NCBI GenBank assembly: GCA_020059045.1
Contig: JAGVCW010000021.1
Coordinates: 27,821 to 91,820 of the forward strand
Reading direction: 5' to 3'
DNA from: Minisyncoccota bacterium
Lineage (GTDB): Bacteria > Patescibacteriota > Minisyncoccia > Phycocordibacterales > Zambryskibacteraceae
DNA length: 64,000 bases
Of this stretch, positions 4,423-23,032 are shown piece by piece. The position numbers were made by a program, and so were the translations under genes. The notes under the pieces were generated by a model that was not told the DNA's origin, searched no databases, and saw only the letters and a list, made by a program, of their open reading frames with translations. How positions within the stretch are numbered: the stretch's first letter is position 1; every line of letters begins with the position of its first letter.

Positions 4423-4506
4423 CCATATATTGTCTTGGTTTTTTGTTTTCGTAGTGATCTTTTCCTCAACATAGAGTATTCTGGAGCGAGAGGCTTTCAT
4501 CCCAAA

Positions 4507-7208: not shown

Positions 7209-7817
7209 GTGAAATTTATCCTCGCAAAAAAGAATAGAATGTCAGAAGTCTTTACTGAGAGTGGTTTGGTAATTCCTGTTACTATTCTTTCTGCTACTCC
7301 TATGGTGGTAACTCAGATGAAAGATGAGTCGACCGACGGGTACAAAGCTGTACAAGTAGGATTTGGTACACGCAGAGAAAAGAGAATAAACAAGGCGGTA
7401 AAAGGGCATACCAAGGAGCTTGGCAATTTTCTAAAGCTAAAAGAATTTCGCCTCAAGGATGATACATTTGTCCGCGGTGACAAGATAGATGTTTCTGTCT
7501 TTACTGCAGGAGATGTGGTTGAAGTCTCAGCCATTTCTAAGGGTAAAGGTTTCCAAGGTGTCGTGAAGCGCCACGGATTTGCCGGTGGTCCACGAAGTCA
7601 TGGGCAGAAACACTCAGAGCGTGAGCCAGGATCTATCGGCGGAGGATTGCGTACACATGTTCCGAAAGGTATGCGCATGGCAGGGCGAATGGGTGGCGAT
7701 CGTATAACCGTAAGGAATCTTAAAGTTGTCGAGGTTAATCCTACAGAGAATATTATTTTAGTTTCTGGCGCGGTGCCGGGGAGAAGAGGAACGATTGTCG
7801 AAATCAGAGGTAAATAA
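7209..7817 (+). CDS. rplC: 50S ribosomal protein L3
   Basis: GTG start. KGKGFQGVVKRHGFAGGP region, and position within the S10 operon. Confidence 0.93.
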   Translation: MKFILAKKNRMSEVFTESGLVIPVTILSATPMVVTQMKDESTDGYKAVQVGFGTRREKRINKAVKGHTKELGNFLKLKEFRLKDDTFVRGDKIDVSVFTAGDVVEVSAISKGKGFQGVVKRHGFAGGPRSHGQKHSEREPGSIGGGLRTHVPKGMRMAGRMGGDRITVRNLKVVEVNPTENIILVSGAVPGRRGTIVEIRGK

Positions 7818-7888
7818 GTTGTAGATGTTCTAAATGTTATATATGTCTGACAATTACAACAACTAGAACAATTACAACAATTAGAACC
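7818..7888. repeat. Family-A hairpin element, copy A1 (rplC-rplD spacer)
   Basis: Imperfect arms GTTGTAGATGTTCTA.. and ..TAGAACAATTACAAC around the apex ATGTCTGACA. Confidence 0.7.
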
Positions 7889-8659
7889 ATGGACACAACA
7901 GTTTATAACCAAAAAGGTGATTCAGTAGGGAAGATTAAGATTCCTGAATCAGTTTTCGGCGTGAAGTGGAATTCTGACATGGTTCACCAAGTTGTGACGT
8001 CCATGACATCTAGTGCGCGCAGAAACACGGCTCATACAAAGACTCGTGGGGAAGTACGGGGAGGAGGCAAGAAGCCTTGGAAGCAGAAGGGTACAGGACA
8101 GGCTCGTCACGGCTCGACTCGTTCACCAATATGGGTAGGAGGAGGTGTGGCACACGGTCCAAGAAACGATAAGAATTATGATCGCAAGGTGAATCGCAAA
8201 ATGAAGACCAAGGCTCTGTTTGCTATACTTTCTAGAAAGCTAAGTGATGGAGAAATAATTTTTATAGATGCGATTACAATGGGAGAAGCGAAGACAAAGA
8301 ATGCAATCAATATTATTTCAAATTTGAGAAAAATTGAGGGTTTCGATAAGATCTTTAATAAAAAGAAAAACAGTGCTCTCATTACTCTTGGCGAGAAAGA
8401 CGATTCTATAACAAGAAGTTTTAAAAACATAGGGAACGTGAGTGTCGATGAAATTCGTAATATAAACCCAGTTACACTTTTAAATTACAAAGCTCTCATC
8501 ATTTTAAATCCAGAAGCGTCTCTTCGATTACTTGAATCAAGGCTTAAGCAGAAAGCTACAGGTGATGCAGAAGGAGTGATAAAGAAAAAGTTTACAGCTA
8601 AAAAGAAAGGAGCTACAACAAAGAAAAAAGTAGTAGCTGCAAAGCCAAAGTCTTTATAA
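7889..8659 (+). CDS. rplD: 50S ribosomal protein L4 with a Lys-rich C-terminal tail
   Basis: GGGKKPWKQKGTGQARHGS core. The 256 aa include about 50 extra basic C-terminal residues. Confidence 0.93.
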   Translation: MDTTVYNQKGDSVGKIKIPESVFGVKWNSDMVHQVVTSMTSSARRNTAHTKTRGEVRGGGKKPWKQKGTGQARHGSTRSPIWVGGGVAHGPRNDKNYDRKVNRKMKTKALFAILSRKLSDGEIIFIDAITMGEAKTKNAINIISNLRKIEGFDKIFNKKKNSALITLGEKDDSITRSFKNIGNVSVDEIRNINPVTLLNYKALIILNPEASLRLLESRLKQKATGDAEGVIKKKFTAKKKGATTKKKVVAAKPKSL

Positions 8660-8669
8660 CAACTCATTT

Positions 8670-9050
8670 ATGGCCCTATTTTCAAAAAAACCCAAAGAAA
8701 AAGTTAAGAAAGACTCTCCAAAGAGTGTTTCACCAGAAGGACCTGTCGCATCAATCGAAACGATGGGTGGTACATCTTTTGCCCATATTCTCTTGCAGCC
8801 ACGTATTACGGAGAAAGCATCTCTCAAGGCAGAGAGCAATAATGTTTATGTCTTTGAAGTAAGCCCTCGTGCGTCAAAAAGTGACATAAGGCAGGCAGTG
8901 AAAGAAATTTATAAAGTGTCTCCAGAAAAAGTTTCTGTCGCACGAATCCCAAGTAAAAGTATTGTGGTTCGTGGTAAGCAAGGTGTGCGATCAGGTGGCA
9001 AGAAAGCCTATGTGTACCTGAAGAAGGGAGAGAAGATAGAGGTAATTTAG
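8670..9050 (+). CDS. rplW: 50S ribosomal protein L23
   Basis: VYVFEVSPRASKSDIRQAVKEIY core, and operon position. Confidence 0.9.
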   Translation: MALFSKKPKEKVKKDSPKSVSPEGPVASIETMGGTSFAHILLQPRITEKASLKAESNNVYVFEVSPRASKSDIRQAVKEIYKVSPEKVSVARIPSKSIVVRGKQGVRSGGKKAYVYLKKGEKIEVI

Positions 9051-9225
9051 AAATTCAACGAACGAAGTGAGTATGAATTACTTAACCCCAACAAATTTTA
9101 TAGATACACAATTACCCAATTATTCTTGTGTATTTAATAACCACGAGTTATTATCCTTGGGCAATTTCTCAACGATAAAATTTGAGGGGGTCATGATTTT
9201 CTAATCGCTCTGCTCAAGAAAATCT
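9051..9225. repeat. Family-B nested hairpin element, copy B2 (rplW-rplB spacer)
   Basis: 5' arm is AACGAACGAAGTGAGTATGAATTACTTAACCCC. 3' arm is GGGGGTCATGATTTTCTAATCGCTCTGCTCAAGAAAATC, running into the ATG. Confidence 0.75.
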
Positions 9226-10065
9226 ATGAAACATTACAAACCAACAACCAAATCGCGAAGACAGATGACCGGTATAGACTACGGGAAAGTTTTGACCGCG
9301 AAAGATCCTTTGAAAAGTCTTACTCATGGAACTAAGCGTGATGTAGGCCGCAACCACCATGGTCGTGTTACAACACGTCACAAGGGAGGTGGGCACAAGC
9401 GTCTTTTCAGAGACATTGATTTTACATACAACAAATTTGATATTCCATTCAAAGTTTTAACAGTAGAATACGATCCAAACAGAACTGGTTTCATTGGCAT
9501 TGTAGTCTACAAGGATGGAGAAAAGAGATATGTCTTACTCCACAAAGGAGCGCGTGTTGGTGATACCTATATAGTTTCAGCTAAGGCTCCAGAGACAGTG
9601 GGCAACCGCCTGCCACTTGGCAAAATCACAGTGGGTACTTTCGTGTACAACGTAGAAGTTAAACCTCGTGGAGGTGCAAGGCTTGCAAGAAGCGCAGGTA
9701 ACTACATAGAAGTTGTTGCAAAGGATGCAGGCTACGTGGATCTTAAAATGCCATCTACAGAAGTAAGAAAAGTTTTAGAGACTTGCTGGGCGACAATCGG
9801 TGAAGTATCAAACGATGAGAACAGACTAGTAAATATCGGAAAAGCTGGAAGAAGTCGCTGGCTTGGTATAAGGCCTACTGTTCGTGGTTCTGCTATGAAC
9901 CCAGTAGATCATCCACACGGTGGAGGAGAGGGTCGTTCAGGACGCGGACGACGTCGAGCAGTGAGTGCATTTGGCAAACCAACAGGCAAGGGGCAGAAGT
10001 CTCGTACTCCAAAGAAATATTCAAACAAATTTATTGTTCGTCGCAGAAAAGTAGGAAAGAAGTAG
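9226..10065 (+). CDS. rplB: 50S ribosomal protein L2
   Basis: GRNHHGRVTTRHKGGGHKR and HPHGGGEGR signatures. Confidence 0.96.
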   Translation: MKHYKPTTKSRRQMTGIDYGKVLTAKDPLKSLTHGTKRDVGRNHHGRVTTRHKGGGHKRLFRDIDFTYNKFDIPFKVLTVEYDPNRTGFIGIVVYKDGEKRYVLLHKGARVGDTYIVSAKAPETVGNRLPLGKITVGTFVYNVEVKPRGGARLARSAGNYIEVVAKDAGYVDLKMPSTEVRKVLETCWATIGEVSNDENRLVNIGKAGRSRWLGIRPTVRGSAMNPVDHPHGGGEGRSGRGRRRAVSAFGKPTGKGQKSRTPKKYSNKFIVRRRKVGKK

Positions 10066-10103
10066 GATGATAAAGAGTAACCTACGACCGACAACACTAC
10101 TGA

Positions 10104-10121
10104 GTGGAAGCCGAGCTTCCA
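10104..10121. repeat. 18-nt GC hairpin GTGGAAGCCGAGCTTCCA, copy 1
   Basis: The identical 18-mer recurs at 19099-19116. Both copies lie just after the last r-protein gene before an operon interruption. Confidence 0.7.
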
Positions 10122-10154
10122 AAAATGTCTGTATTTCTTGCATAGCAGTGTAAA

Positions 10155-10182
10155 TAAAAAAGCCCCGCATGTTTATGGGGCT
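10155..10182 (-). terminator. Intrinsic terminator of the minus-strand MYG1-like gene
   Basis: AGCCCC/GGGGCT stem, with a T-run on the minus strand (A-run at 10155-10160). Confidence 0.65.
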
Positions 10183-10186
10183 ACGG

Positions 10187-11155
10187 TTATACTGTATCAA
10201 GCACAGCTTGTATCTCTGCGGCCAGTGCATTGGCTTCAGCCGCGTCTCTACTCTCATTTTCCTCAAGTTGAGCAGAGTCAACTGGTACTTCTCCAGGCAG
10301 AAGTGCAAGTTCAGCAAGTCGCAAAGCACCCTCTCTACTCTCGGCTACGATTAGGTATCGGTTTTGGTGGCAAAACACGGCATCTCCTACCCCGGTGATT
10401 TCCTGAAGTTCAAGACCTCTCATACCTGCCCACTCTCTTGGTAACAAGCGAGGCGAAGTTGTATCAGTAGCTCTGTGCCAGCGTTTCACTGTCTGTACGA
10501 GCCAGCCGACCCTTTTGGGGTACACGACGAGGACTATTTCTGGGAAGTTTCTACTTACGTAGTGATCCCAACGGCATGAGTCATCAAGGAGTAAAACCTG
10601 TGGGCTTAAGTGCTTCTCTACAGCTCTCTTGACCACCTCTTCTCCTCGAATCTCTTCTTTTGCGCGGAAGATTGCACCACTTATGTTTGCTCGTGCAAAC
10701 GCAAGAGCAATATCCCAGTCACTTGGCTTAAATGTAGCTACTGCACTTGAAATGCTGTATGGCCGGATTTCACCAGCTTTGTATCTTACCAGAGTATACC
10801 TGTTGTCTGCCGCATCTATGGGTATAACCATGTGCCTCTCAATTTCTTCAGCTATCCGAGTGTCTTGAGCAATTCGCAGTCCGAAATGTTTCCATACAAG
10901 ACCGAAGGCAGCGTATGGAACACCATTTGCTCGTCTACCAGCACCTCCTTGCATATGGTGATCGAAGTCTAGAGTTTCTGGGTTGTACACTCCTCCTACA
11001 TCAATACGTACATTGCTTTCAGCTATTACTCTTGGATCGCGGCTACGCACCACAAGAGCTTCCATGTATTCCGGAAGCAATTGTAAGGCCGCGATCGCGT
11101 ACACCTCGTCTGCATGGATGGGTCCGTCGTGGGTCACAATTTGCACAGACAACAC
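10187..11155 (-). CDS. MYG1/UPF0160-family metal-dependent hydrolase-like protein
   Basis: VTHDGPIHADEVYA, VVRSRDP and IDVGGVYNPETLDFDHH match the family layout I recall (HxGxFHxDE .. DVGG..(Y/F)DHH). Confidence 0.7.
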   Translation of the reverse strand: MLSVQIVTHDGPIHADEVYAIAALQLLPEYMEALVVRSRDPRVIAESNVRIDVGGVYNPETLDFDHHMQGGAGRRANGVPYAAFGLVWKHFGLRIAQDTRIAEEIERHMVIPIDAADNRYTLVRYKAGEIRPYSISSAVATFKPSDWDIALAFARANISGAIFRAKEEIRGEEVVKRAVEKHLSPQVLLLDDSCRWDHYVSRNFPEIVLVVYPKRVGWLVQTVKRWHRATDTTSPRLLPREWAGMRGLELQEITGVGDAVFCHQNRYLIVAESREGALRLAELALLPGEVPVDSAQLEENESRDAAEANALAAEIQAVLDTV

Positions 11156-11369
11156 CTCAAAATGGGAGTGAAATGCTTCTATAACAAAGGGCAGTACAAA
11201 ATACAGAGTACATATTTTTAGAAAATAGTCAAGATTTGCTAGATTTGCAATAAGTCTATGAGTTTATGGGTATTAGTTATTTTCTCACAATATAAGTGCT
11301 TATTTACTCCCAAAATATGGCCTAAGATAGCCCTTTTTGGGGATTTATGTAATTTAAATCAAAAAGTTC

Positions 11370-11397
11370 TTGACAAATAAATTGTATATGTTATACT
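11370..11397 (+). promoter_or_regulatory. Sigma70-type promoter
   Basis: TTGACA (11370-11375), 16-nt spacer, TATACT (11392-11397). Confidence 0.6.
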
Positions 11398-11479
11398 ATA
11401 GGTAGTAGTAAGTAGTACATTTCAGTTGCAGTTCCCCGTTCAAGGTAGTCCACTCAGCACACCTTATGGAGGTATTACC

Positions 11480-12199
11480 ATGGCTAGCAAGAAGAAGCAG
11501 CAGGTAGCAACGAGCCCGGTTCCCAGCATGCAGGCCGCGGTTGCCACGATGGCGGAAGAGGCTCCCGCCGAGAGCAGGCAGTTCTCTTCGAGCCAGCCGA
11601 AGTGGTCCCCGACTCAGTTCATTGAGACCCTGGGGAAGATCAAGGAAGAACTCCCGGCCGCCGTGTCGAACTTCAAGATCGTGAAGAAGATCGTGGGTCT
11701 CGAGATGGACGGCAAGGATGAGATGGCCTTTCGGCAGATGATTCAGCTCGCCGGGGCCGTTGCTACCAAAGCATCCCAGAAGGCGGACGCGGAAGACCCA
11801 TCAAAGGTGTATCTGGATGCCAGGAAGGTCCAGGCTGCGCTCACCGCATGTGAGCGTGCCAATTCCAATCTGGCACGCACCTTCGACAGGTACATCGGGA
11901 ACTGGCGGAAGCGGGCTGACACCATGATGTCGAACGCAAGGCGCAAGGACCCGGACGTGATCGAGCGCGAGAGTGACACAATCGCGGACAACATGGAGGC
12001 ACTGGATGAGGCACTTGAAGGAAAGAAGCCTCGTCAAGAGGTCCTCGAGATCTACAACAGGACCTTCACCCATCTTCGCGAGCTCTCAAAGGAAGCAACG
12101 GCGCTTGCTACTGAAGCTTCGAGGAGAGAGCAGATCGAAACGATCGGCTCACTCGGGGACGACATCCTCGACTCTCTCGCGGAACTCGACAGCATCTAA
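11480..12199 (+). CDS. GC-rich helical orphan protein (239 aa)
   Basis: ATG at 11480 follows GGAGG. It has its own promoter and terminator. Hand counts give 42/60 and 38/60 G+C in two lines, far above the flanks. Confidence 0.6.
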   Translation: MASKKKQQVATSPVPSMQAAVATMAEEAPAESRQFSSSQPKWSPTQFIETLGKIKEELPAAVSNFKIVKKIVGLEMDGKDEMAFRQMIQLAGAVATKASQKADAEDPSKVYLDARKVQAALTACERANSNLARTFDRYIGNWRKRADTMMSNARRKDPDVIERESDTIADNMEALDEALEGKKPRQEVLEIYNRTFTHLRELSKEATALATEASRREQIETIGSLGDDILDSLAELDSI

Positions 12200-12217
12200 G
12201 TGCTGCGAGCAGTAGTA

Positions 12218-12254
12218 CCCCACGAAAAACCCCCAAGGTATCGTGGGGTTTTTC
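12218..12254 (+). terminator. Intrinsic terminator
   Basis: CCCCACGA / TCGTGGGG 8-bp stem followed by TTTTTC. Confidence 0.7.
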
Positions 12255-12472
12255 TTTTATTGCAATTGCGGAGAATACCATGACAGCTAGGCTGCATGGG
12301 ATGAATCCGCAAATACATACTATATGTCGGCGGAGCCGACTCCTCTTGCAACAAAGTTTGCCCTGATGCCTCGTCCTGCTACTCGCCGAGGCTTTGCGAG
12401 GGAATAGCTTACTGCGATTATAGGACGAGGCCAATTTTATTAAGATAATAATCTTTCCTGTATAATTTATAT

Positions 12473-13441
12473 ATGGAATACAAAACTATTATTTTGCCTA
12501 CTAGGCCTCAGGTGGATACTGTTATTTCTATATTCGTATTAAAGCACTTTGGTGAAAGTTTCTTCCCTGGTATTAAGACTGCTAGCTATGAGTTCATGTC
12601 CAACTTACCAGCTGGTGCGAGCGAAGAGAGCTTGGCAGAGGAAGGAAGGCTCCCAATAGATATTGGTGGTGGACGATTTGATCATCACAACAAAGAGGAG
12701 AAAACCACTGTTCTAAATCTTTTGACTAGCTTTCTTGCTCAAGGGAATAATCCTGCTTTAATAAAACTCAAGAAGTTTGTAGAAAGAGATGATTTTTATG
12801 GTAAAGGAATAATATCCTCTGACCCCCTTGATCGTGCTTTCGGTTTGCCCGGGCTTATTGCTTGTCTTAATAAAAAGTATTCAAGTAACCCAGCGAAAGT
12901 GCTGGATATAATTCTTCCAGTTGTTGATGCGTACTACGAAGAAGAAGAGAAGAGGGCAATAGGAATGCCTCTTGAACTTAAGGAGAAAATAGCAAATGGT
13001 AAAGCTAGAGTATTTAATACAGAGCAGAGAGGCAGAAAACTTAAATGCATTTTCATAGAAAGCGATAACATAAGTCTACCGGGTTTTCTTCGATCTAAGA
13101 TTGGAGGGGAGCACGATGTGATTGCAATAAGGCTATCGTCTGGACACACAAATATTCTTACGAGTCTCAAAAATACAGTTGATTTGCGTTCACTCGCAGT
13201 GCTTATTCGCTTACAAGAAGCCGAGGCGCGAGGTGTGAAGCTAGATGGAGTGCCGGAAGATTTAGCAGTACCGGGTAAAATCGATGAAGTACTTAATTGG
13301 TACTACGATACAGCTACTAACTCTTTACTAAATGGTGGTCCTAATCCAAGTGAGACCGACCCAACGGGAATAGCATCTTTCGAATTTGAAAAAATAATGG
13401 AAATAGGGCTCTCTGAGAAACTCTGGTCTCCATCACGATAA
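12473..13441 (+). CDS. Divergent UPF0160/MYG1-like paralog that has lost the N-terminal metal motif
   Basis: Keeps IDIGGGRFDHH. Where the other copy has THDGPIHADE, this one has LPTRPQVDTV. Composition is AT-rich (20/60 G+C in line 12481). Confidence 0.45.
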   Translation: MEYKTIILPTRPQVDTVISIFVLKHFGESFFPGIKTASYEFMSNLPAGASEESLAEEGRLPIDIGGGRFDHHNKEEKTTVLNLLTSFLAQGNNPALIKLKKFVERDDFYGKGIISSDPLDRAFGLPGLIACLNKKYSSNPAKVLDIILPVVDAYYEEEEKRAIGMPLELKEKIANGKARVFNTEQRGRKLKCIFIESDNISLPGFLRSKIGGEHDVIAIRLSSGHTNILTSLKNTVDLRSLAVLIRLQEAEARGVKLDGVPEDLAVPGKIDEVLNWYYDTATNSLLNGGPNPSETDPTGIASFEFEKIMEIGLSEKLWSPSR

Positions 13442-13486
13442 GCCAAATACCCTTTATATTAGCCACGTAATGGTCTATAAAAATCC

Positions 13487-13515
13487 TTGACTTTTATAGA
13501 CCATTATGCTATTAT
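13487..13515 (+). promoter_or_regulatory. Sigma70-type promoter
   Basis: TTGACT (13487-13492), 17-nt spacer, TATTAT (13510-13515). Confidence 0.55.
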
Positions 13516-13564
13516 TATACAAGAACAGCAGTTTCACACACCGACCCTTTCACAAGGAGTTTGC

Positions 13565-14155
13565 ATGGTAAAAAGCAAGGAAGTCGTCGACCCCGCATTT
13601 GTCGGAGAAGTGGAAGCGGCGCTCGTGTACCTCACGGTGCCCGGCAATCTGAAGTATCTTATACCCGGGTGGGTAAAAGAGGCGGACTTCTCGAATACTC
13701 CAAAGTCCGAGCGCCAGATGGCCCCACGATCCGATAAGTTGTTCCAAGTTGCACAAGCGAGGATGGATGGGGTGCTCGGGGATCTTGCCGGCGCTGGTTT
13801 CCTCCCCTCTGAAGTGTTTTATCTGAATCGGGATGGTGGCGCGCGGCGGGTTCGTATCACATGCAAGCGCTTTGGCGCACCGCTGACACTCGATCAGGTG
13901 CAGTCTCTCATTCCCCTCACTACCGAGCGGATATGGGATGTGATGGCTCATCGGACGGCTGCTACCAGGAACATTCCATGGGAGCACATTTCGATCAATG
14001 CCGGACGCCCCGATCATGCTCCAGAAGGGGGATTCGAAGCGGTTCGCGTGGTCGAAGGTCGAGTCTCGGTAGTTTCCCTTCTCAACACGGACGAGCTGCG
14101 GAAGGCGTCTGAGTCCATCATCGGCCTCCTCGAATCGCTGCAGATAACACGCTAA
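13565..14155 (+). CDS. GC-rich orphan protein (196 aa)
   Basis: ATG at 13565 follows AAGGAG, downstream of the 13487 promoter, and a terminator follows. The 13550..14182 minus-strand ORF is its mirror. Confidence 0.55.
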   Translation: MVKSKEVVDPAFVGEVEAALVYLTVPGNLKYLIPGWVKEADFSNTPKSERQMAPRSDKLFQVAQARMDGVLGDLAGAGFLPSEVFYLNRDGGARRVRITCKRFGAPLTLDQVQSLIPLTTERIWDVMAHRTAATRNIPWEHISINAGRPDHAPEGGFEAVRVVEGRVSVVSLLNTDELRKASESIIGLLESLQITR

Positions 14156-14183
14156 TCCTCCTTGCGATAACAGGGGGGTCAAC

Positions 14184-14212
14184 GAGCCAGACAGAAATGT
14201 CTGGCTCTTTTC
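14184..14212 (+). terminator. Intrinsic terminator
   Basis: GAGCCAGAC / GTCTGGCTC stem followed by a T-run. Confidence 0.7.
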
Positions 14213-14219
14213 TATTTAA

Positions 14220-14246
14220 TTGACAACAAGTGTCTATTTCTATAAT
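14220..14246 (+). promoter_or_regulatory. Restart promoter for rpsS and the rest of the S10 operon
   Basis: TTGACA (14220-14225) and TATAAT (14241-14246) with a short 15-nt spacer. A GAAGCTC/GAGCTTT hairpin plus T-run follows in the leader. Confidence 0.5.
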
Positions 14247-14349
14247 ATCTTGAGAAGCTCATCCGAGCTTTTTGTATTCTAATTTTAGTTTTAGTAGCTG
14301 GGCAGGAGTAACCCTTCGACGAGCTCAGGGTAAAAATCTAAAGATTTTT

Positions 14350-14709
14350 GTGACACGATCATCAAAAAAAGGCCCCTATGTATATGAGCGCCTTCTGAAG
14401 AAAATTGAAGGCAAAAAGCCCGAGCAAGCTGGGGTTATTAAGACATGGGCAAGGGACAGCCAGATCGCTCCCGAGATGGTTGGCTACACATTTGGAGTAC
14501 ATAATGGTAAGGATCATATTGAAGTTTTTGTAACTGAAGACATGGTGGGTCATAGACTCGGCGAATTCTCACCTACACGTAAGTTCGTTAAACATGGCGG
14601 TAAGATGCAGAAAGAACTTGAGCAGAAGAAGAAAGAATCAGAAATAGCATCTGCTCAAGCGGCCAAAGCCTCTGTAAGTGCAGGAGCAAATACAGTACCG
14701 GCGAAGTAG
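14350..14709 (+). CDS. rpsS: 30S ribosomal protein S19 with a C-terminal tail
   Basis: I set the start to GTG 14350 (..[15 protein letters not shown]). [21 protein letters not shown] core. Confidence 0.9.
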
Positions 14710-14813
14710 CTTAAATGTTCTAAGTGTTGTATGTGTTATACATGTCATACAACTTCAACAATTCAAACAAATAAAACAACTAGAACATCTATAACAATTA
14801 AAACCGCGAATTT
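14710..14813. repeat. Family-A hairpin element, copy A2 (rpsS-rplV spacer)
   Basis: TGTTCTAAGTGTTGTATG.. and ..CAACTAGAACATCTATAACA arms around the apex CATGTCATACAAC. Confidence 0.65.
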
Positions 14814-15212
14814 ATGAGCGAAATAACTGCACAACTAAATGATTACAGACAGGCACCTCGTAAGGTGCGAGTTGTTGCAGGTCTTGTAAGAGGCAAGTCG
14901 GTCAAAGATGCTTTGGTGTCACTTGAATTTTTGCCTAAGCGTGCAGCAGATCCAATCTCAAAGCTTATAAGATCAGCGGTTGCAAACGCTCGATCTCAGA
15001 ACATTGAAACCGAGAATCTTATTCTAAAGGAACTACGTGTAGACGGAGGAAAAATATTATATCGAAGACGCAGCGCATCCCGCGGCCGAGCACCAGCTAT
15101 ACGAAAGAGGACAAGCCACATTCTCGTTGTCTTATCGGAAGACACCAAGAAGAAGTTGAAAAAGCAAAATGCAAAAAGTAAAAGTAATTCAGACGTAAGC
15201 GCTAAAAAATAA
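14814..15212 (+). CDS. rplV: 50S ribosomal protein L22 with a Lys-rich tail
   Basis: QAPRKVRVVAGLVRGKSVKDAL core, and operon position. Confidence 0.92.
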   Translation: MSEITAQLNDYRQAPRKVRVVAGLVRGKSVKDALVSLEFLPKRAADPISKLIRSAVANARSQNIETENLILKELRVDGGKILYRRRSASRGRAPAIRKRTSHILVVLSEDTKKKLKKQNAKSKSNSDVSAKK

Positions 15213-15248
15213 TTTTAAATTTTGATTTTTAAATTTTAATTTATATTC

Positions 15249-15929
15249 ATGAGTCATACAGTTCACCCATTTTCACACAGACTAGGTATCATAAGAGATT
15301 GGAGATCTCGATGGTTTGGTACAAAGAAGAATTACAAAGAATTTCTTCGCGGTGATCTTTTGATACGAGCATTTCTAGAAGGAAAGCTTCGTGGTATGTA
15401 CGTAAGTACTATTGAAATCGAGCGTAATGAAAAAGTTCTGCGCATTATAGTTGAGACTTCTCGACCCGGTATGATCATTGGTCGTAGTGGCGATGGAGCA
15501 GTCCGGCTCAAAGACCAGATCGTAGCCATGCTTCGCCGAGAGAAGGTGGGTCGTGCTAACGAAGAGGTTCGTCTCGATATTAAGGAGGTTAGATCTCCAG
15601 AATCAAATGCTCACATTGTTTCTCAGATGATAGGAGAGGGACTTGAGAAAAGACTTCCATACAGAAGAGTTGTGAAGCAAATGGTAGAAAAGGTTATGGC
15701 CAATCGTGATGTGAAAGGGGTAAAGGTAACTGTTGCAGGAAGACTCGGGGGCGCAAGTATTGCACGATCAGAGACAAGAAAGCTTGGTAGAATTCCTCTT
15801 CAGACATTTCGTGCTGATGTAGAGTTCGCACGGCACGAAGCTCGTCTCCCATATGGCAATCTGGGTATAAAAGTTTGGATTTACAAAGGTGACATTTTCT
15901 CCACCAAGGTTGGTGGAGAAAAGTCATAA
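15249..15929 (+). CDS. rpsC: 30S ribosomal protein S3
   Basis: HPFSHRLGIIRDWRSRWF, then KH and S3-C regions, with GIKVWIYKGDIF near the end. Confidence 0.95.
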   Translation: MSHTVHPFSHRLGIIRDWRSRWFGTKKNYKEFLRGDLLIRAFLEGKLRGMYVSTIEIERNEKVLRIIVETSRPGMIIGRSGDGAVRLKDQIVAMLRREKVGRANEEVRLDIKEVRSPESNAHIVSQMIGEGLEKRLPYRRVVKQMVEKVMANRDVKGVKVTVAGRLGGASIARSETRKLGRIPLQTFRADVEFARHEARLPYGNLGIKVWIYKGDIFSTKVGGEKS

Positions 15930-16396
15930 TTGTTCTACTTGTTATAGTTGTTCTATATGTCAGAGAGATTTCAAGGATATAGGTTTGAAAAATTGGAAGT
16001 TTGGCAGGTGGGAATGCGTATAGTAAGTAAGGTATATTCAATTACGAAAAGGTTTCCTAAAGACGAGACCTACGCCCTGTCTGACCAGTTAAAAAGAGCA
16101 GCCACTTCGATAGTTTTAAACTTGGCAGAAGGCTCAGGACAGCCAACAAAAAAGTTATTCTCTCTTTATATTGAACGTGCCAAGTCCTCAACACTTGAAT
16201 GTGTGGCTTGTACAAAAATTGCTGTTCAGGAAAAACTTGTAGAACCTGATGAGGTTAAATCTTTGGAAGAGCTACTTGCGGAAGAGTATTTTAAACTTAT
16301 TGCGCTAGCAAAATCTATGAGGTAAGATCTTCCTACTCTAGCTTGTAACCTATCTAACACCTATAACAACTAGAACATATATAACACTTACAACCA
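15930..16396. repeat. Family-A hairpin element, copy A3, with an ORF inserted at its apex
   Basis: Left arm TGTTCTACTTGTTATAG pairs with right arm CTATAACAACTAGAACA. The apex ATGTCAGAG supplies ATG 15957 of the enclosed ORF. Confidence 0.65.
15948..16325 (+). CDS. Four-helix-bundle protein of the 23S rRNA intervening-sequence protein family
   Basis: YRFEKLEVWQ..FPKDETYALSDQLKRAATSIVLNLAEGSG..AKSSTLE matches the family pattern I recall. The start is TTG 15948 or ATG 15957. Confidence 0.75.
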   Translation: MFYMSERFQGYRFEKLEVWQVGMRIVSKVYSITKRFPKDETYALSDQLKRAATSIVLNLAEGSGQPTKKLFSLYIERAKSSTLECVACTKIAVQEKLVEPDEVKSLEELLAEEYFKLIALAKSMR

Positions 16397-16813
16397 ATGC
16401 TTTTCCCAAAAAAAGTAAAATATCGAAAATGGCACACTATGCGCAAGAACCCCAAGAAGGTGGGTTCTGCTACTCGTGGTATAGAAGTTAACTTCGGATC
16501 CTATGGTCTGAAAGCTCTTGAGTATGGCCGTATTAAGTCGAACCAGATTGAGTCAGCAAGAAAGGTTATGTCTCGCTCACTCGGAAAGACTGGCAAGATT
16601 TGGATCAGGATTTTCCCAGACATGCCATACACAGCGAAACCTGCCGAAGTTAAGCTCGGTAAAGGAAAAGGTGATCTCCAAGGTTACGTCGCTCCAGTTC
16701 ACGCAGGCAGAGTACTTTTTGAAGTAGATGGAGTAACGGAGGCTGTGGCAAGAGAGTCGCTCCGTAAAGCAGGAACAAAGCTACCAGTGAAAACAAGGAT
16801 AGTGGCTAGGTAA
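16397..16813 (+). CDS. rplP: 50S ribosomal protein L16
   Basis: MLFPKKVKYRKWH.., then GKGKGDLQGYVAPVHAGRVLFEV. Confidence 0.95.
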   Translation: MLFPKKVKYRKWHTMRKNPKKVGSATRGIEVNFGSYGLKALEYGRIKSNQIESARKVMSRSLGKTGKIWIRIFPDMPYTAKPAEVKLGKGKGDLQGYVAPVHAGRVLFEVDGVTEAVARESLRKAGTKLPVKTRIVAR

Positions 16814-16903
16814 ATAGCGCTTGTTGTAAATGATGTATATGTTCTAAGTGTCTGACAAATACAACATCTACAACATTTAAAAACATTTACAACAAAATAT
16901 AGT
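16814..16903. repeat. Family-A hairpin element, copy A4 (rplP-rpmC spacer)
   Basis: TTGTTGTAAATGATGTATATGTTCTAAG arm, apex GTGTCTGACA, then AATACAACATCTACAACATTT arm. Confidence 0.7.
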
Positions 16904-17095
16904 ATGTCTAAGGAACTCAAAGAAAAAAACGAAAAGGAATTAAGTAAAATGCTTGCGGATAATCAAGAGAATTTACGCTCTTTTCGATTTGGTATCGCAG
17001 GTTCGAAGAATCGCAATGTGAAAGAGGGACGGGCAATTCGCAAAGACATTGCAAGGATCCAAACTGAGATGAGTGCTCGCAAGAAGGCTAAATAG
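16904..17095 (+). CDS. rpmC: 50S ribosomal protein L29
   Basis: 63-aa helical product (ELKEKNEKELSKML..LRSFRF) at the expected operon position. Confidence 0.88.
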   Translation: MSKELKEKNEKELSKMLADNQENLRSFRFGIAGSKNRNVKEGRAIRKDIARIQTEMSARKKAK

Positions 17096-17142
17096 ACAAG
17101 AGTCTGAAAATATGTAGTATAAACACACTAACTTATAGAGAG

Positions 17143-17382
17143 ATGAGTGCAATATCCACAAAAAATAAAGAATTTACAGGTACAGTAGTGTCAGACAAAA
17201 TGAAAGACACGATTGTTGTTAGTGTGGAGAGGTTTACGAAGCACCCTCGTTACGGCAAGTACATCCGAAGCCGTCGTAAGTTCAAGGTTCACGATGTAGG
17301 AAATACGAAAAAGATTGGAGAAAAAGTAGTATTCATTGCTTGTCGCCCAATTTCAAAAGATAAGAGATTCAGAGTTATTTAA
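17143..17382 (+). CDS. rpsQ: 30S ribosomal protein S17
   Basis: GTVVSDKMKDTIVVSVERFTKHPRYGKY core. Confidence 0.93.
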   Translation: MSAISTKNKEFTGTVVSDKMKDTIVVSVERFTKHPRYGKYIRSRRKFKVHDVGNTKKIGEKVVFIACRPISKDKRFRVI

Positions 17383-17558
17383 GGAGCTTGGCGACTATAA
17401 ATAACCTGACCCCCCATCATTTTTAACAATGAAACCTGAAACATTAAAAAAAGATATTGAAAAACATTTCTATTATAGTATCCGATGAAACATATTTTAA
17501 AAATGATGAGGGATGGTGATTTTCAAAAACTCACTATCGCTCGTTAAGAAAATCAACC
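17383..17558. repeat. Family-B nested hairpin element, copy B3 (rpsQ-rplN spacer)
   Basis: Inner stem is CCCCATCATTTTTAA / TTAAAAATGATGAGGG. The 3' end ACTCACTATCGCTCGTTAAGAAAATCAACC is identical to copy B6. Confidence 0.7.
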
Positions 17559-17930
17559 ATGATCCAACCCCGCTCAATAGTAAAAATAGCAGACAACTCA
17601 GGCGCCAAAATCGGTAGAGTTTTCAAGGTGCTTGGTGGGTCTAAGAAGAGATACGCACGTATTGGTGATGTGGTGGTATTGTCGGTTCAGGTAGCACAAC
17701 CTAGAAAGTCAGTGAAAAAGAAAGACATTTTGTACGCGGTGGTAGCACGTCAGAGAACACCATTTCGCAGACAAGATGGTTCCTACATTCGTTTCGATGA
17801 GAATGCAGTGATAATTGTTGATAAAGCAAAGCACGAGCCTATCGCAGGACGTGTTTTCGGACCGATCCCAAGAGAGCTTGGCGAGATGGGATTCCAGCAG
17901 GTAATATCATTAGCACAAGAGGTAGTTTAG
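17559..17930 (+). CDS. rplN: 50S ribosomal protein L14
   Basis: MIQPRSIVKIADNSGAK.. core. Confidence 0.96.
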   Translation: MIQPRSIVKIADNSGAKIGRVFKVLGGSKKRYARIGDVVVLSVQVAQPRKSVKKKDILYAVVARQRTPFRRQDGSYIRFDENAVIIVDKAKHEPIAGRVFGPIPRELGEMGFQQVISLAQEVV

Positions 17931-18149
17931 AAAATCAAGGAGTGAAACGACTATGATTTACTTAACCCCACCTAAATTTTGCATCGAAGACAGAAGCGCA
18001 GTGCGCGGCCGAGTAGGCCAAGCGGTCATGGGCGAAGCGCTGCGCCTCGAAAGGTTTGTGACTATTCGTCACTCGCACTTCTTGTGGTAATGTAAAAGCA
18101 AAATTTAGGCGGGGTCATGATTTTCCAATCGCTCCGCTCAAAAAAATCA
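17931..18149. repeat. Family-B nested hairpin element, copy B4 (rplN-rplX spacer), with a GC-rich insert
   Basis: Arms are ATGATTTACTTAACCCCACCTAAATTTT and AAAATTTAGGCGGGGTCATGATTTT. The loop holds a GC-rich segment (GCGCAG..CTGCGC). Confidence 0.75.
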
Positions 18150-18455
18150 ATGAAAATAAAAAGGGATGACAACGTAATAGTGATAGGAGGCAAGGACAGA
18201 GGCAAAACTGGTAAAGTTTTGCGTGCTTTTCCTCGTGAATCGAAAGTTGTCATCTCGGGCGTAAACTTGAAAAAACTTCATAAGCGTCCCACAAAATCCG
18301 GGCAGAAGGGACAAGTCGTTGAGCAAGCTGCACCCATACATGTATCAAATGTTATGATTGTGGATCCAAAATCTGGGAAGAGAACAAGAGTTCTACGCAA
18401 GATGGAAGGAGACAAGAAAGTCAGAGTAGCAAAAAGTAGCGGCACCACGCTGTAA
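18150..18455 (+). CDS. rplX: 50S ribosomal protein L24
   Basis: I set the start to ATG 18150 (MKIKRDDNVIVIGGKDRGKTGKV, the KOW motif). Confidence 0.92.
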   Translation: MKIKRDDNVIVIGGKDRGKTGKVLRAFPRESKVVISGVNLKKLHKRPTKSGQKGQVVEQAAPIHVSNVMIVDPKSGKRTRVLRKMEGDKKVRVAKSSGTTL

Positions 18456-18532
18456 AGTTATAAATGTTGTAATTGTTGTAGTGTCAGACATTTATAACAT
18501 CTACAACATTTAGAACAATTTCAACATACAAA
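18456..18532. repeat. Family-A hairpin element, copy A5 (rplX-rplE spacer)
   Basis: AAATGTTGTAATTGTTGTAG arm, apex GTGTCAGACA, then TTTATAACATCTACAACATTT arm. Confidence 0.7.
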
Positions 18533-19081
18533 ATGCAAAGCATAAAAGAAAAAACTCAAAAAACGTTTTCATCACTTAAGGCCACTCGTGGTTATAAAAA
18601 TCCCATGCAATCTCCACGTATTGTCAAAGTTGTTGTGAGTGTAGGAACGGGCTCATTTAAGGATGCGAAGAAAAAGGAACTTGCCCTGGATCGTCTTACG
18701 AAGATTACCGGCCAGCGCCCATCAGTACGCGGTGCAAAGCAGTCAATTGCCGCATTTAAAGTCCGACAGGGAGACCCGGTAGGACTTGCAGTCACACTTC
18801 GTGGCAAGAGAATGTACGATTTTCTAGATAAGTTAATCCATGTGGCCCTACCTCGTACCAAGGACTTCAGAGGAGTATCTTCTAAAGCTATTGATAAGAT
18901 GGGCAATTACACTCTAGGTATTAAGGAGCACACTATTTTCCCAGAGACAGCAGACGAGGAACTTAAAGACGTTTTTGGGCTAGCAATAACAATAGTTACG
19001 ACCGCAAGAACGAAGGAGGAGACCAAAGAATTTCTAGATTATCTAAGTTTCCCTTTCAAAAAAACAGAAGAGAAGAAGTAA
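18533..19081 (+). CDS. rplE: 50S ribosomal protein L5
   Basis: PRIVKVVVSVGTG.., then GNYTLGIKEHTIFPE. Confidence 0.95.
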   Translation: MQSIKEKTQKTFSSLKATRGYKNPMQSPRIVKVVVSVGTGSFKDAKKKELALDRLTKITGQRPSVRGAKQSIAAFKVRQGDPVGLAVTLRGKRMYDFLDKLIHVALPRTKDFRGVSSKAIDKMGNYTLGIKEHTIFPETADEELKDVFGLAITIVTTARTKEETKEFLDYLSFPFKKTEEKK

Positions 19082-19084
19082 ATC

Positions 19085-19120
19085 CGTGGAAGCGAAGCGT
19101 GGAAGCCGAGCTTCCACGGA
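19085..19120. repeat. GC hairpin with the shared 18-mer GTGGAAGCCGAGCTTCCA, copy 2
   Basis: CCGTGGAAGC..GCTTCCACGG stem. The 18-mer at 19099-19116 is identical to 10104-10121. Confidence 0.7.
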
Positions 19121-19184
19121 ACATACTGTGTTCAGAATCTTTAAATGCTTGTAAACTTCATATAAATTTGTTTCTATAATAGAT

Positions 19185-19391
19185 ATGACAGAAGAATCAC
19201 TAAACTTAAACGAGACAAAGGAGAAGAGCGCGTTTTCCATGGGCGATCATTCAGATTTTATTGCAAGAGAGCTTGACCAAGTGAATAGGGAGTTACTCGA
19301 TGTAAGTTTAGACATACCAGATGGGGAGGTATCAGGTTTGGAAGAAGTGTATGATGCGATGATAAGGGATCTAAAAATCGAAAATAAATAA
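19185..19391 (+). CDS. Small acidic hypothetical protein
   Basis: 68-codon ATG ORF. No motif. Confidence 0.35.
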   Translation: MTEESLNLNETKEKSAFSMGDHSDFIARELDQVNRELLDVSLDIPDGEVSGLEEVYDAMIRDLKIENK

Positions 19392-19410
19392 TTCAAGTTC
19401 TCACTTTCGT

Positions 19411-19752
19411 ATGAACAAATTTTTATCTTTAGTAACGCGTATTCTGGGTGAGCTAGAATTTTCGCAAGAAAACAAAGAAAAAGTTGCATATGATCTCAAT
19501 CGCCTAATTATGACAAAGGTTGTCATAGCACTTCTTGATGAGGCCCCAGAGAATGTTCAAACTGAAGTTGAAAAACTTTTAAGTGCTGGTGAAACACTTG
19601 AAGTTGCAAATATCCTCAAGTCTACATTTACGACTGAAAGATTCGAAGAAGTAAGCCTTCATATTACTCGAGATGTGGTTCACAAATACTTAAGCGAATT
19701 GTTTGCAAAAACTCACAAGGAAAACAAAGAGAAACTTGTCGCTTCACTCTAA
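19411..19752 (+). CDS. Hypothetical helical protein
   Basis: 113-codon ATG ORF that ends at the hairpin shared with the convergent RNA gene. Confidence 0.4.
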   Translation: MNKFLSLVTRILGELEFSQENKEKVAYDLNRLIMTKVVIALLDEAPENVQTEVEKLLSAGETLEVANILKSTFTTERFEEVSLHITRDVVHKYLSELFAKTHKENKEKLVASL

Positions 19753-19780
19753 TATTTGTGCTGGGCTCTAATAGCACAGT

Positions 19781-20281
19781 ACTTTTGTATAAAAACAAAC
19801 CCGCTCCTTGGTGAGGGCGGGCGATAGTGGGAAGAAAACTTCCAATGGTTTGGAAACTGCATGAAACCGGGTACTTCCTCCCTTTGTCTAGTCAATGGCG
19901 ATTGGGCGCCTATGACATCCTCTTGGCTGTAAACCTCGTAACTCACCATGAGTTACGGCAGGCTAACGCCAACTAAGCTGAGGACTTCGACTGGGCTGTC
20001 TCTGCACGTGGTCCCGAATGAGACGCCTAGTGAGCGAATGACCCGAACGCAGACTACCCGGTTTCACACTTTGTAATGAACTTATATCTTGCACTCTCTT
20101 TCGAGAGATGATTTCGTACCCTGGGGCGGCGAGCGGGCCGAAGCGCCGTCACGACCCCAGGGACTTCCTCGATATTTAACCTCTGATGCCGAGTACCGCA
20201 TCGGAGGCGATCCCCGTTAGGACGTAAGCGAATGCACCGGTTTAGGGCACATCACTGTATCCGAGCCCGCATGGGGGAGCT
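19781..20281 (-). ncRNA. Roughly 500-nt GC-rich structured RNA with RNase P RNA-like motifs; identity unresolved
   Basis: About 640 bp hold no ORF apart from one 66-aa shadow. Consensus promoter upstream; terminator CCCGC..GCGGG plus UUUGUUUUU at 19781-19811. GAAA-capped hairpin, 8-bp hairpin at 19928-19946, 12-bp long-range helix, and GAGGAAGUCC and ACCCGGUUUCA motifs. Confidence 0.6.
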
Positions 20282-20286
20282 TGTGA

Positions 20287-20314
20287 GCTTATGTATATTA
20301 TAGCATGTACACGT
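20287..20314 (-). promoter_or_regulatory. Consensus sigma70 promoter of the structured RNA
   Basis: The minus strand reads TTGACA (20314-20309), a 16-nt spacer, then TATAAT (20292-20287). Confidence 0.7.
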
Positions 20315-20592
20315 TATTTGTCAAGGAGTTTCTCATTATCTTTTCTGTGACACATGAAATATGGCTAAAACTAAGGCTTATTTGAATATCACTTTAAAGT
20401 AGAGGGAAATTTGTTGGCAAGTTCTTGAAATTATCCGCTTAACCCTTATTTTATTGACTTTATACGGCTCAATTGCTAAGCTGTTGCAAAGCTTTTGGAA
20501 GCTTTTTTCTTTACTTAATCGCTTCATTCGTCAATATTCTTCCTTTTGAGGGCTTTCGCTCATGCGAGGTCGCTAGAGGATAAACAATATTT

Positions 20593-20778
20593 GTGGCCAA
20601 GAAATCAGTTATAGCAAGATCAGTTAAAAAGCCTAAATTCTCGACTCGCATCGTGAGGCGTTGTTTCCGTTGTGGTCGAAAGCGTGGCTATATGCAAGAT
20701 TTTGATCTATGTAGAATATGTTTTCGCGAATTTGCAAATGAAGGCAAAATCCCGGGCGTTAAGAAATCAAGTTGGTAA
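20593..20778 (+). CDS. rpsN: 30S ribosomal protein S14, zinc-ribbon type Z
   Basis: 61 aa with a GTG start. [17 protein letters not shown] carries two CxxC pairs. Confidence 0.93.
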
Positions 20779-20881
20779 TAAAAGATTGTTCTAGATGTTG
20801 TAATTGATATACATGTTATAAATGTCTGACAAATACAACAACTAAAACATTTTGAAACAAATATAACATCTCAAACATTAC
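20779..20881. repeat. Family-A hairpin element, copy A6 (rpsN-rpsH spacer)
   Basis: TTGTTCTAGATGTTGTAATTG arm, apex ATGTCTGACA, then AATACAACAACTAAAACA arm. Confidence 0.7.
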
Positions 20882-21265
20882 ATGGATCCCATCGCTGACA
20901 TGATAATAAGAATCAAGAATGCAGGAGAATCCCGCAAGGATACAGTGGCTTTTCCATATTCAAATTTGAAAGCAAGCATCTGCAAAACTCTTCTAGATAG
21001 TGGATACATAAAATCTCTTGTTATAAAAGGGAAGATTGCCAAATCAATAGAAGTCGGACTTATTTACAACGGCAAGTTCCCAAAGATCCAAGGTGTGAAG
21101 AGACTTTCGAAGCCTTCTCGTCGTCTATACAAGGCCTCAAGTGATCTACGGCCGGTTAAGAGAGGGTATGGATCTCTCATCATGTCTACTCCGAAGGGAA
21201 TAATGGTAGGAGAGCATGCCCGTAAGTCTAAAGTCGGTGGTGAGGCATTATTTGAAATATGGTAA
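20882..21265 (+). CDS. rpsH: 30S ribosomal protein S8
   Basis: MDPIADMIIRIKNA.., ending ..GGEALFEIW. Confidence 0.95.
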   Translation: MDPIADMIIRIKNAGESRKDTVAFPYSNLKASICKTLLDSGYIKSLVIKGKIAKSIEVGLIYNGKFPKIQGVKRLSKPSRRLYKASSDLRPVKRGYGSLIMSTPKGIMVGEHARKSKVGGEALFEIW

Positions 21266-22329: not shown

Positions 22330-22351
22330 TCAAATATTAATAATCAAATCA

Positions 22352-23005: not shown

Positions 23006-23032
23006 TTTACATCATCCAAACCATTTCCGCCC

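Follow-up and report, generated by a model that had tools for sequence, protein, structure and literature searches.

Intervening sequences (IVSs) of bacterial ribosomal RNA (rRNA) and the heptamer arrays of cyanobacteria are long-standing puzzles. IVSs carry an open reading frame (ORF) of the S23p/IVP family in Coxiella and Leptospira, and occur as ORF-less hairpins in Salmonella and many other bacteria. The protein itself, IVP (synonyms S23p and "four helix bundle protein"), dates back to the early 1990s in the literature and has a solved structure and thousands of homologues, but to our knowledge no known function. Inverted repeats flank the rRNA IVSs in which this ORF family resides, RNase III excises these IVSs, and ORF-less IVS hairpins are common [PMC4990558]; IVP ORFs further occur in 16S and 23S rRNA insertions of candidate phyla radiation (CPR) bacteria [PMC11270868]. 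Here, we analyzed a 64-kb stretch of contig JAGVCW010000021.1 from a Minisyncoccota bacterium (hereafter referred to as the window), whose plus strand carries fusA, tuf, the S10/spc ribosomal-protein (r-protein) cluster through secY, adk and map. Six intercistronic spacers of this cluster, collectively named family A, are occupied by elements that probably represent a selfish IVS-like cassette made of an IVP gene and inverted arrays of 9-nt words, present as one full and five ORF-less copies.

The six spacers lie at the rplC-rplD (71 nt), rpsS-rplV (104 nt), rpsC-rplP (467 nt), rplP-rpmC (90 nt), rplX-rplE (77 nt) and rpsN-rpsH (103 nt) junctions, the flanking genes of which were assigned by Pfam to L3|L4, S19|L22, S3|L16, L16|L29, L24|L5 and S14|S8, in agreement with the junctions and lengths given in an initial annotation of this DNA. 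Inverted arms built from TGTTNTA and TANAACA words around an RTGTCWGACA apex, as the same annotation had proposed, are present in all six. Phased on the apex, the layout is (TGTTNTA+NN)x2-4 on the left, RTGTCWGACA, and (NN+TANAACA)x4-7 on the right with a strict 9-nt period, units being invariably more numerous in the right arm; the arrays reach from the stop codon of the upstream gene, where the left arm begins, to the start codon of the downstream gene, where the right arm ends. Period 9 was detected in all five ORF-less copies (z = 5-10 relative to shuffled sequences), and any arm word complements any word of the opposite arm at 6 or 7 of 7 positions. The apex is found in 6/6 spacers with at most one mismatch, and is not by itself enriched across the window (21 matches versus 13.9 expected). 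No terminator-like site is present in any of the six spacers, whose stems are A/U-rich and devoid of a T-run; promoter-like matches amount to two weak ones (9/12), both in rplP-rpmC, and a scan of the region showed no enrichment in promoter-like or terminator-like sites. The elements are real, inter-related, imperfect inverted repeats and, as first suggested, they are not classical intrinsic terminators.

The same words stand beside IVP genes in other CPR genomes. Genomic context was fetched for seven IVP homologues, corresponding to six contexts: L083; L084-93, between genes for LemA and a peptidase M48; L094, between DsbA-like and TrxB-like genes; L095-97 from Gracilibacteria, between sigma70 and DnaB genes (48% identity); L108, between two tRNA genes with a reverse transcriptase (RT) gene nearby; and L110 (42% identity). 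In five of these contexts, all but L110, TGTT-type words are found upstream of the IVP gene and AACA-type complements downstream (TANAACA in most), the homologues with words being 48-75% identical and the 9-nt period recurring wherever the words suffice; L094 has a single recognizable upstream word. Foreign arrays with protein-coding neighbors leave 0-3 nt to the stop codon on the upstream side and 0-18 nt to the start codon on the downstream side, and in all contexts but L108 the cassette immediately follows the stop codon of a co-oriented protein-coding gene. A search of the window with an nhmmer profile for which only six foreign (non-window) IVP right flanks were used yielded 13 matches at E<0.01 (best 2e-8), all 13 of them inside the six family-A spacers, with right arms matching on the plus strand and left arms on the minus strand. 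That a foreign-flank profile matches these six spacers only argues that family A is homologous to the arms of IVP cassettes, an identity which we regard as very probable. The next match (E 0.1), at 54015-54057 inside recG, was taken as chance.

A regular-expression scan of 97 loci found left-right word pairs confined to IVP ORFs and to the window spacers. The recurrence of the motif outside the window, on which the initial annotation had laid weight, thus holds for the arm words at foreign IVP genes and not for the exact ORF-less form: a metagenome-wide scan for left word, apex and right word returned one match, inside an unrelated coding sequence. Scanning viral contigs for three left words gave more than 120 matches with no IVP ORF in any of 120 loci; ~45 matches were inspected, and most proved to be coding tripeptide repeats, exact tandem 9-mers or iteron-like arrays, the pattern being insufficiently specific. 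Separately, a solo family-A-like left array, (TTGTTCTAA)x4.6, was observed directly after the dnaB stop codon of L095 (4814-4992), and the groES|groEL spacer holds a tandem-word hairpin in L094 (4934-5025) and a short tandem word array in L088 (489-546).

The 467-nt rpsC-rplP copy, all on the plus strand, is the one that encodes an IVP. Its left arm (15930..15956), which reads TTGTTCTAC TTGTTATAG TTGTTCTAT, extends from the rpsC stop codon to the IVP ATG (profile E 3.7e-5), the IVP gene occupies 15957..16325, and the right arm (16326..16396), which closes with TATAACAAC TAGAACATA TATAACACT TACAACCA, ends at the rplP ATG (profile E 6e-7). The two arms pair with each other in a duplex of -21.2 kcal/mol (z -6.1), and arm pairing was likewise found in three of the six other CPR cassettes tested. 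The gene product is an intact four-helix-bundle protein of 122 aa with an R..S...N..E motif that matches Pfam PF05635 (E 5.5e-27), TIGR02436 (E 2.4e-22) and PDB 2GSC (XCC0516, a pentameric four-helix bundle; E 3e-12), with no match in PADLOC or PHROGs; a protein search returned 150 homologues, mostly from Parcubacteria and including a 100%-identical record (P0001). The IVP start codon sits at the apex, which reads ATGTCAGAGA in the ORF-bearing copy versus ATGTCTGACA or GTGTCAGACA in ORF-less copies. The conserved apex noted earlier does exist, then, but is in fact the IVP start codon region.

The ORF-less copies, likewise on the plus strand, retain this signature. Their apex agrees with ATGTCAGAGA at 8/10 positions in four copies and 7/10 in the rpsS-rplV copy, ATG or GTG is kept at the apex in 5/5, and all carry a mini-ORF of 7-10 codons (MSD(K/N/I)YN...) that extends into the right arm, with 19-39 nt between its end and the next start codon; the mini-ORF may be a relic or a translational relay. 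The rplC|rplD copy (7818..7888) consists of three left words, apex ATGTCTGACA and four right words, folds at -18 kcal/mol (z -3.7/-4.0) with a period-9 z of 8.6, and encodes MSDNYNN from 7843 (profile E 2.7e-8; left arm 9e-5 on the minus strand). In the rpsS|rplV copy (14710..14813), three left words and six to seven right words flank a degenerate apex, ATGTCATACA; the hairpin is weak (z -0.9/-1.5), the period pronounced (z 10.2) and the profile E ranges from 1.4e-5 to 5e-3. The rplP|rpmC copy (16814..16903) displays apex GTGTCTGACA, mini-ORF MSDKYNIYNI, period 9, a fold z of -2.5/-2.6 and profile E values of 5.4e-6 and 9.7e-5. The best hairpin of the set (-21.7 kcal/mol, z -4.2/-4.4) belongs to the rplX|rplE copy (18456..18532), with apex GTGTCAGACA, period 9, mini-ORF MSDIYNIYNI and a profile E of 2e-8. 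Finally, the rpsN|rpsH copy (20779..20881) combines four left words, apex ATGTCTGACA and five to six degenerate right words with period 9, mini-ORF MSDKYNN, a fold z of -1.7/-2.3 and profile E values of 1.2e-6 and 7e-3. The expectation that these spacers fold better than dinucleotide-shuffled controls is therefore borne out clearly for three ORF-less copies and only weakly for two. The consensus stem of the five copies comprises 18 pairs, and individual folds 23-27 pairs with 2x2 internal loops. Made of arms, the IVP start codon and two codons, the ORF-less copies are either internal-deletion derivatives or a bare hairpin form of the cassette, a hairpin which may in turn have acquired the ORF. 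The copies are not flanked by a common direct repeat that would denote a target-site duplication, nor did the relatives include one with an empty site close enough to define their boundaries.

To place these elements in their clade, 17 junctions were scored in 81 genomes, namely the window and 80 relatives. Comparison of L16 with species-representative genomes retrieved metagenome-assembled genomes (MAGs) of Zambryskibacteria, Paceibacteria and other Parcubacteria at 67-86% identity; the window therefore stems from a Zambryskibacteria-like CPR bacterium whose species the collection lacks. In relatives L001-L023 (78-86% L16 identity), the same junctions measure 1-30 nt, and neither an IVP ORF nor family-A arms were found in the r-protein loci of the 80 relatives. 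The copies are therefore lineage-specific insertions. In the window, 12 of the 17 junctions that are normally short reach a length of 55 nt or more, to which rpsJ-rplC and tuf-rpsJ are to be added; taken as approximate, the earlier count of 13 junctions with a long structured element is borne out. Long junctions are missing from 37/81 genomes, number at least three in 19, and reach at least 8/17 in five: L068 (16/17), L038 (14/17), the window (12), L026 (9) and L067 (8). The statement that no described r-protein operon is built in this manner was thus right in that the many-junction design is unusual, and wrong in that L068, L038, L026 and L067 share the architecture.

In the long spacers of these relatives, which are other Paceibacteria, a tandem array on the left is followed by a loop and then by an array of the reverse-complement words that extends up to the start codon, and their words are unrelated to family A (for example AGCGTTT/CTAACCG, ACGCTAC, AGCTAGTA, AAATTTTAA, GTTGAATAAGTT/AACTTATTAAAC and ACGAATGA/ATTCGTA). 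Taken together, 141 spacers of this kind show a median fold z of -3.2, with 75% below -2, and 61 are significantly periodic (mostly period 7, in 32, or period 9, in 16). Antisense strands appeared to fold more stably than sense strands (94 versus 43 spacers, p 1e-6), a difference rejected as compositional because shuffles share a bias of 2.4 kcal/mol (excess 0.34, p 0.52), so that strand comparison does not discriminate between action as RNA and as DNA. Shine-Dalgarno (SD)-like motifs precede 6-8% of internal r-protein cistrons in the clade, regardless of spacer length.

Other repeat elements were seen in the window as well. A third family of word-hairpins fills tuf|rpsJ (6515-6639; GTTGAGAAGTTTAATAAGTT... 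/ ...AACTTATTAAACTTATAAG, period 9), and its words recur in four junctions of L038 and one of L024, such that word families are shared across genomes at different junctions. Family B spacers exist in long forms (7027-7208, 9051-9225, 17383-17558 and 17931-18149) and short forms (21266-21353 and 21888-21975); their termini, AACGAACGAAGTGAGTAT... and ...ACTCGCT(A)TCGCTCGTTAAGAAAATCAACC, pair with each other, the spacers are not periodic, the long forms hold a variable nested hairpin that is absent from the two 98%-identical 88-nt forms, and family-B-related copies are found in rpsQ|rplN and other junctions of L024 and L026. A direct heptamer array without inverted partner, (TCATTCC)x6-9, occupies 25661-25730 up to the SD-less adk start codon (true start 25731), downstream of an extended -10 promoter-like TGTTATTATAAT, and resembles the TAACTGA-type arrays of Beggiatoaceae; (AATTTTA)x4 at 15211-15248 abuts the rpsC start codon.

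The premise that the spacers separate genes expected to be co-transcribed agrees with the co-orientation of the cistrons and the lack of a predicted terminator, but the operon is not continuous. It is split at rplB|rpsS by a four-gene insertion (10.1-14.3 kb) with its own promoters and terminators, and at rplE|rpsN by an insertion of ~1.5 kb, likewise with promoters and terminators of its own. Because both gaps measure hundreds to thousands of nucleotides in nearly all 80 relatives, these two junctions are conserved insertion hot spots. The rplB-rpsS insertion (10100-14270) contains an MYG1-family exonuclease gene on the minus strand and three more ORFs, two of which are unusually rich in G+C (58% and 55%).

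Compared to 23S rRNA IVSs, family A shares the ORF family (PF05635) and its position in a loop between complementary termini that form a stem, the coexistence of ORF-bearing (~430-470 nt) and ORF-less (~70-150 nt) forms, a sporadic, lineage-specific distribution and, on the assumption that it is co-transcribed, residence within a host RNA. In contrast to IVSs, which insert in helix 25/45 of 23S rRNA and end in a unique 28-bp stem, family A lies between mRNA cistrons, its arms are tandem degenerate 9-nt words, and several copies cluster in one operon. Moreover, RNase III excision has been shown for rRNA IVSs [PMC4990558], whereas family A is known here from its sequence. Neither the intercistronic setting nor arms of tandem degenerate words are described for IVSs in the literature searched. 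We thus view the locus not as a new operon architecture designed for regulation but as an IVS-type cassette with miniature derivatives colonizing intercistronic spacers, and lean slightly towards these copies being essentially selfish or neutral rather than adaptive.

How such insertions could be tolerated may be pictured as follows. Each copy takes the place of a stop-to-start spacer of 1-30 nt seen in close relatives and, having no terminator or clear promoter of its own, would be co-transcribed with the operon. Because any word complements any opposite word at 6 or 7 of 7 positions, the arms would pair in the mRNA in a register-tolerant manner despite changes in copy number, giving an imperfect stem of ~18-27 bp. 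Such a stem would place the stop codon and the next start codon side by side, leaving the last 10-20 nt of A/C-rich leader unpaired, and this geometry would preserve termination-reinitiation coupling, which in turn would explain the tolerance and persistence of palindromic insertions at SD-less, presumably coupling-dependent junctions. The stems are also plausible substrates for RNase III, which would cut the polycistronic mRNA between cistrons. This idea gains support by analogy because rRNA IVSs with this ORF family are excised by RNase III, and such processing may take place, although we place it somewhat short of an even chance.

Several observations weigh against a selfish IVS-like cassette. 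Hairpins are weak in two of the five ORF-less copies (z about -1 to -2), covariation is essentially absent from the five-copy alignment, whose pairs are almost all invariant and hence uninformative on the fold, and no sense-strand G-U signature is left once composition is controlled for; with neither covariation nor strand signature, nothing shows selection on the RNA fold. The arms of L083 and L094 are unpaired, and the L110 IVP gene has no arms. Right-arm similarity does not identify the resident ORF-bearing copy as the source of the ORF-less ones. The words are moreover conserved across 48-100% IVP identity, beyond the need of a mere stem, which suggests a sequence-specific reader, possibly IVP itself. 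Lastly, no transposase, RT or RNase III gene was found among the scanned ORFs of the window, and no catalytic activity is known for IVP, which leaves the spread of the copies without an evident agent.

The word conservation is the starting point of the main alternative, or complement, to a purely structural reading, namely that the word arrays are binding sites of a sequence-specific protein, most simply IVP, and that the ORF-less copies are cis sites at which IVP acts in trans, for processing, translation control or mobilization, the hairpin being secondary. The arm units TGTTCTANN and NNTAGAACA would then be the candidate IVP targets. We consider this explanation possible and distinctly less likely than not. 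In its favor, both words and 9-nt period are kept in IVP flanks at 48-100% identity, where a stem alone would allow compensatory drift. Avd, a relative of IVP from diversity-generating retroelements (DGRs), binds nucleic acid, although this binding is reportedly not sequence-specific. The likeness to Avd comprises a distant homology, a pentameric four-helix bundle acting on nucleic acid and, for one IVP homologue with word arms (L108), an adjoining RT gene; on the other hand, the window contains no RT, template repeat or variable repeat, and its IVP matches Avd only weakly (NF033474, E 2e-4, 21 bits versus an Avd cut-off of 80 bits). The protein is pentameric in PDB 2GSC [PMC4990558].

Further bearing on binding sites came from plasmids, in which the IVP genes detected by tblastn (28-54% identity within the matched stretch) were restricted almost entirely to cyanobacteria. 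In all ten cyanobacterial loci inspected, the IVP gene is flanked on both sides by high-scoring tandem arrays of period 7 or 8, inverted in 8/10, as in Nostoc ((GGGAACA)x4...ORF...(TGTTCCC)x6), and direct in 2/10, which indicates that arrays exist without a hairpin. The words next to these distant IVPs (~34% identity) differ from those of family A in 10/10 loci (GGGAACA, GGGAAAA, GGAGATA, GGCAGAA...), and word and protein lineage therefore change together. Beside the IVP gene of Anabaena sp. 90, 20 copies of a 14-nt unit were observed. Opposing a role as binding sites, the case is drawn from sequence patterns, the arms are complementary rather than identical, such that a single-strand binder would read one arm, a spacing of 9 bp does not put the sites on one face of duplex DNA, and the L110 IVP does without arrays.

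Several of the cyanobacterial IVP genes lie between cas6 and cas4 or cmr2 and cmr3 (L100, L102 and L106), inside long heptamer arrays. IVP genes wedged between cas genes were earlier read as a functional association [PMC3936711], and a search of open-access text gave no publication that connects IVP genes with tandem word arrays. Arrays of this kind beside cas genes might pass for degenerate CRISPR-like repeats, and hitchhiking may underlie the IVP-cas "association", IVP genes in cas and other operons being possibly hitchhikers rather than functional partners. More speculatively, and with the odds in our view against so broad a unification, IVP and word arrays might form a distinct, widespread class of mobile "operon-hitchhikers", in which IVP would recognize, and perhaps generate or mobilize, its own arrays; rRNA IVSs, cyanobacterial arrays of the short tandemly repeated repetitive (STRR) type, IVP genes of cas operons and the word-hairpins of CPR r-protein and groESL operons would then be one system, with ORF-less hairpins as trans-dependent miniatures. 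A TIGR-Tas or CRISPR-like array was considered for family A and rejected, the period being 9 rather than ~36, with no spacers and no Nop-domain or cas gene nearby.

Unlikely, in our estimation, is an adaptive operon device in which the right array would serve as an SD-independent initiation or standby site, masked by the left arm until the upstream ribosome melts the stem and thereby enforces coupling, or in which the hairpin would protect the 3' end of the upstream mRNA. The layout is compatible with such a device: arrays end 0-18 nt before SD-less start codons, surplus units of the right arm invariably stay unpaired ahead of the start, the left arm sets in at the stop codon, and every ORF-less copy has retained a start codon with a mini-ORF of 7-10 codons as a possible relay. 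Direct-only arrays abut other start codons of the same genome (those of adk and rpsC), and five unrelated genomes have filled 8-16 of 17 junctions with hairpins of this type. TAACTGA heptamer arrays, known from Beggiatoaceae, Cyanobacteria and Bacteroidetes, occupy equivalent SD-less sites in the r-protein operons of Beggiatoaceae [PMC4679880]. These STRR/TAACTGA repeats resemble family A in being tandem 7-9 nt words, intergenic, often upstream of start codons without ribosome-binding sites and found inside r-protein operons; they differ in word and period (7 versus 9), and those described are mostly direct with no associated protein reported, whereas family A words are degenerate and inverted around an ORF or apex. 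However, 37/81 genomes have no long junction and L001-L023 have almost none with the same SD-less starts; since the nearest relatives manage such starts without long junctions, the device is dispensable. Nor do the words, wholly different between families, provide a common ribosome-binding sequence, and neither covariation nor a strand signature is seen. Finally, coupling has no part to play beside tRNA genes or at the end of an operon, and yet IVP genes are flanked by the same arms there. STRR arrays also occur as helix extensions inside a structured RNA, that of RNase P.

A still weaker alternative, which we hold to be very improbable, equates the copies with miniature inverted-repeat transposable elements (MITEs) or repetitive extragenic palindromic (REP)-type repeats mobilized by a conventional transposase located elsewhere (DDE or an IS200/IS605-like REP-associated tyrosine transposase, RAYT), IVP being an incidental passenger. 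Neisseria Correia elements, enterobacterial repetitive intergenic consensus (ERIC)/intergenic repeat unit (IRU) sequences, and REP repeats with their bacterial interspersed mosaic element (BIME) and REPIN arrangements form RNA hairpins that can act as RNase III or RNase E substrates or mRNA stabilizers; REP/BIME and Correia elements, the latter cut by RNase III, are co-transcribed and processed. Like these, family A consists of short, multicopy, intergenic insertions in an operon with inverted ends, five of them ORF-less copies of 71-104 nt. In contrast to them, it has no transposase or RAYT partner and its ORF encodes a four-helix-bundle protein without known transposase fold; no transposase was found in the window or beside any IVP cassette examined. 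Its ends are tandem degenerate words rather than unique inverted repeats, no target-site duplication is recognizable, and the arms travel with IVP in 5/6 other CPR contexts. Within the 64 kb covered, the copies lie in one operon rather than being dispersed: family A is confined to 7.8-20.9 kb, profile searches gave no significant match elsewhere in the window, and the features of a REPIN-RAYT system were not found in the window, the 48 kb outside the operon holding no copies and the scanned ORFs no Y1 transposase. That the spacers are chance products of AT-rich low-complexity sequence or local replication slippage without common origin is, despite their repetitive A/T-rich composition and two copies that fold no better than many shuffles, scarcely credible, being already contradicted by a foreign-genome profile that finds all six spacers and nothing else, by a periodicity z of 5-10, by an apex common to the copies and by a full motif that is not a common string.

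The remainder of the window provides the setting. At gathering thresholds, Rfam detected only tmRNA and two tRNAs in the whole window, and thus no rRNA gene; at E<=1 over 6400-24000, it found nothing in family A. Outside 6.5-23.6 kb, intergenic DNA consists of ordinary promoters and terminators. On the minus strand between rplE and rpsN, and thus opposite to the operon, a stretch of ~520 nt (19775-20292; G+C 51% versus ~41%) is preceded by a perfect TTGACA-16-TGnTATAAT promoter (20324-20297) and closed by a terminator-like 3' hairpin; it folds at -197.5 kcal/mol (z -4.8), matches no Rfam family even at E<=1, resembles nothing in the loci of the 80 relatives, and is probably an undescribed structured RNA gene. 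In a minus strand operon, the 259-nt infC|rpmI spacer (36386-36644), between infC and a short ORF upstream of rplT (36194-36385) which we take to be rpmI, contains a near-perfect, non-word-periodic palindrome of ~22 bp (CCCCACACTTACTTGGCAGT...ACTGCCAAGTAAGTGTGGGG) that may represent either a regulatory structure of the L20 type or a further hairpin insertion. Five unknown ORFs (2172-4923) interrupt the conserved cluster between fusA and tuf. ARAGORN called two unusual tRNAs on the minus strand, tRNA-Ile with anticodon TAT (48802-48876) and tRNA-Ser with anticodon ACT (61097-61186), both confirmed as tRNAs by Rfam; the tRNA-Ser (ACT) assignment may be a mis-call.

For IVP, a family without an assigned function, this locus provides a physical link to a specific, conserved and periodic nucleic-acid motif, and the presence of ORF-bearing and ORF-less copies in one operon offers a natural series. 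At the level of the organism, the most conserved bacterial operon can, in CPR lineages, absorb a structured insertion at most of its junctions, which bears on how SD-less, coupling-dependent translation tolerates long spacers, and the assumptions made in MAG annotation on the synteny and spacers of r-protein operons fail in these lineages.

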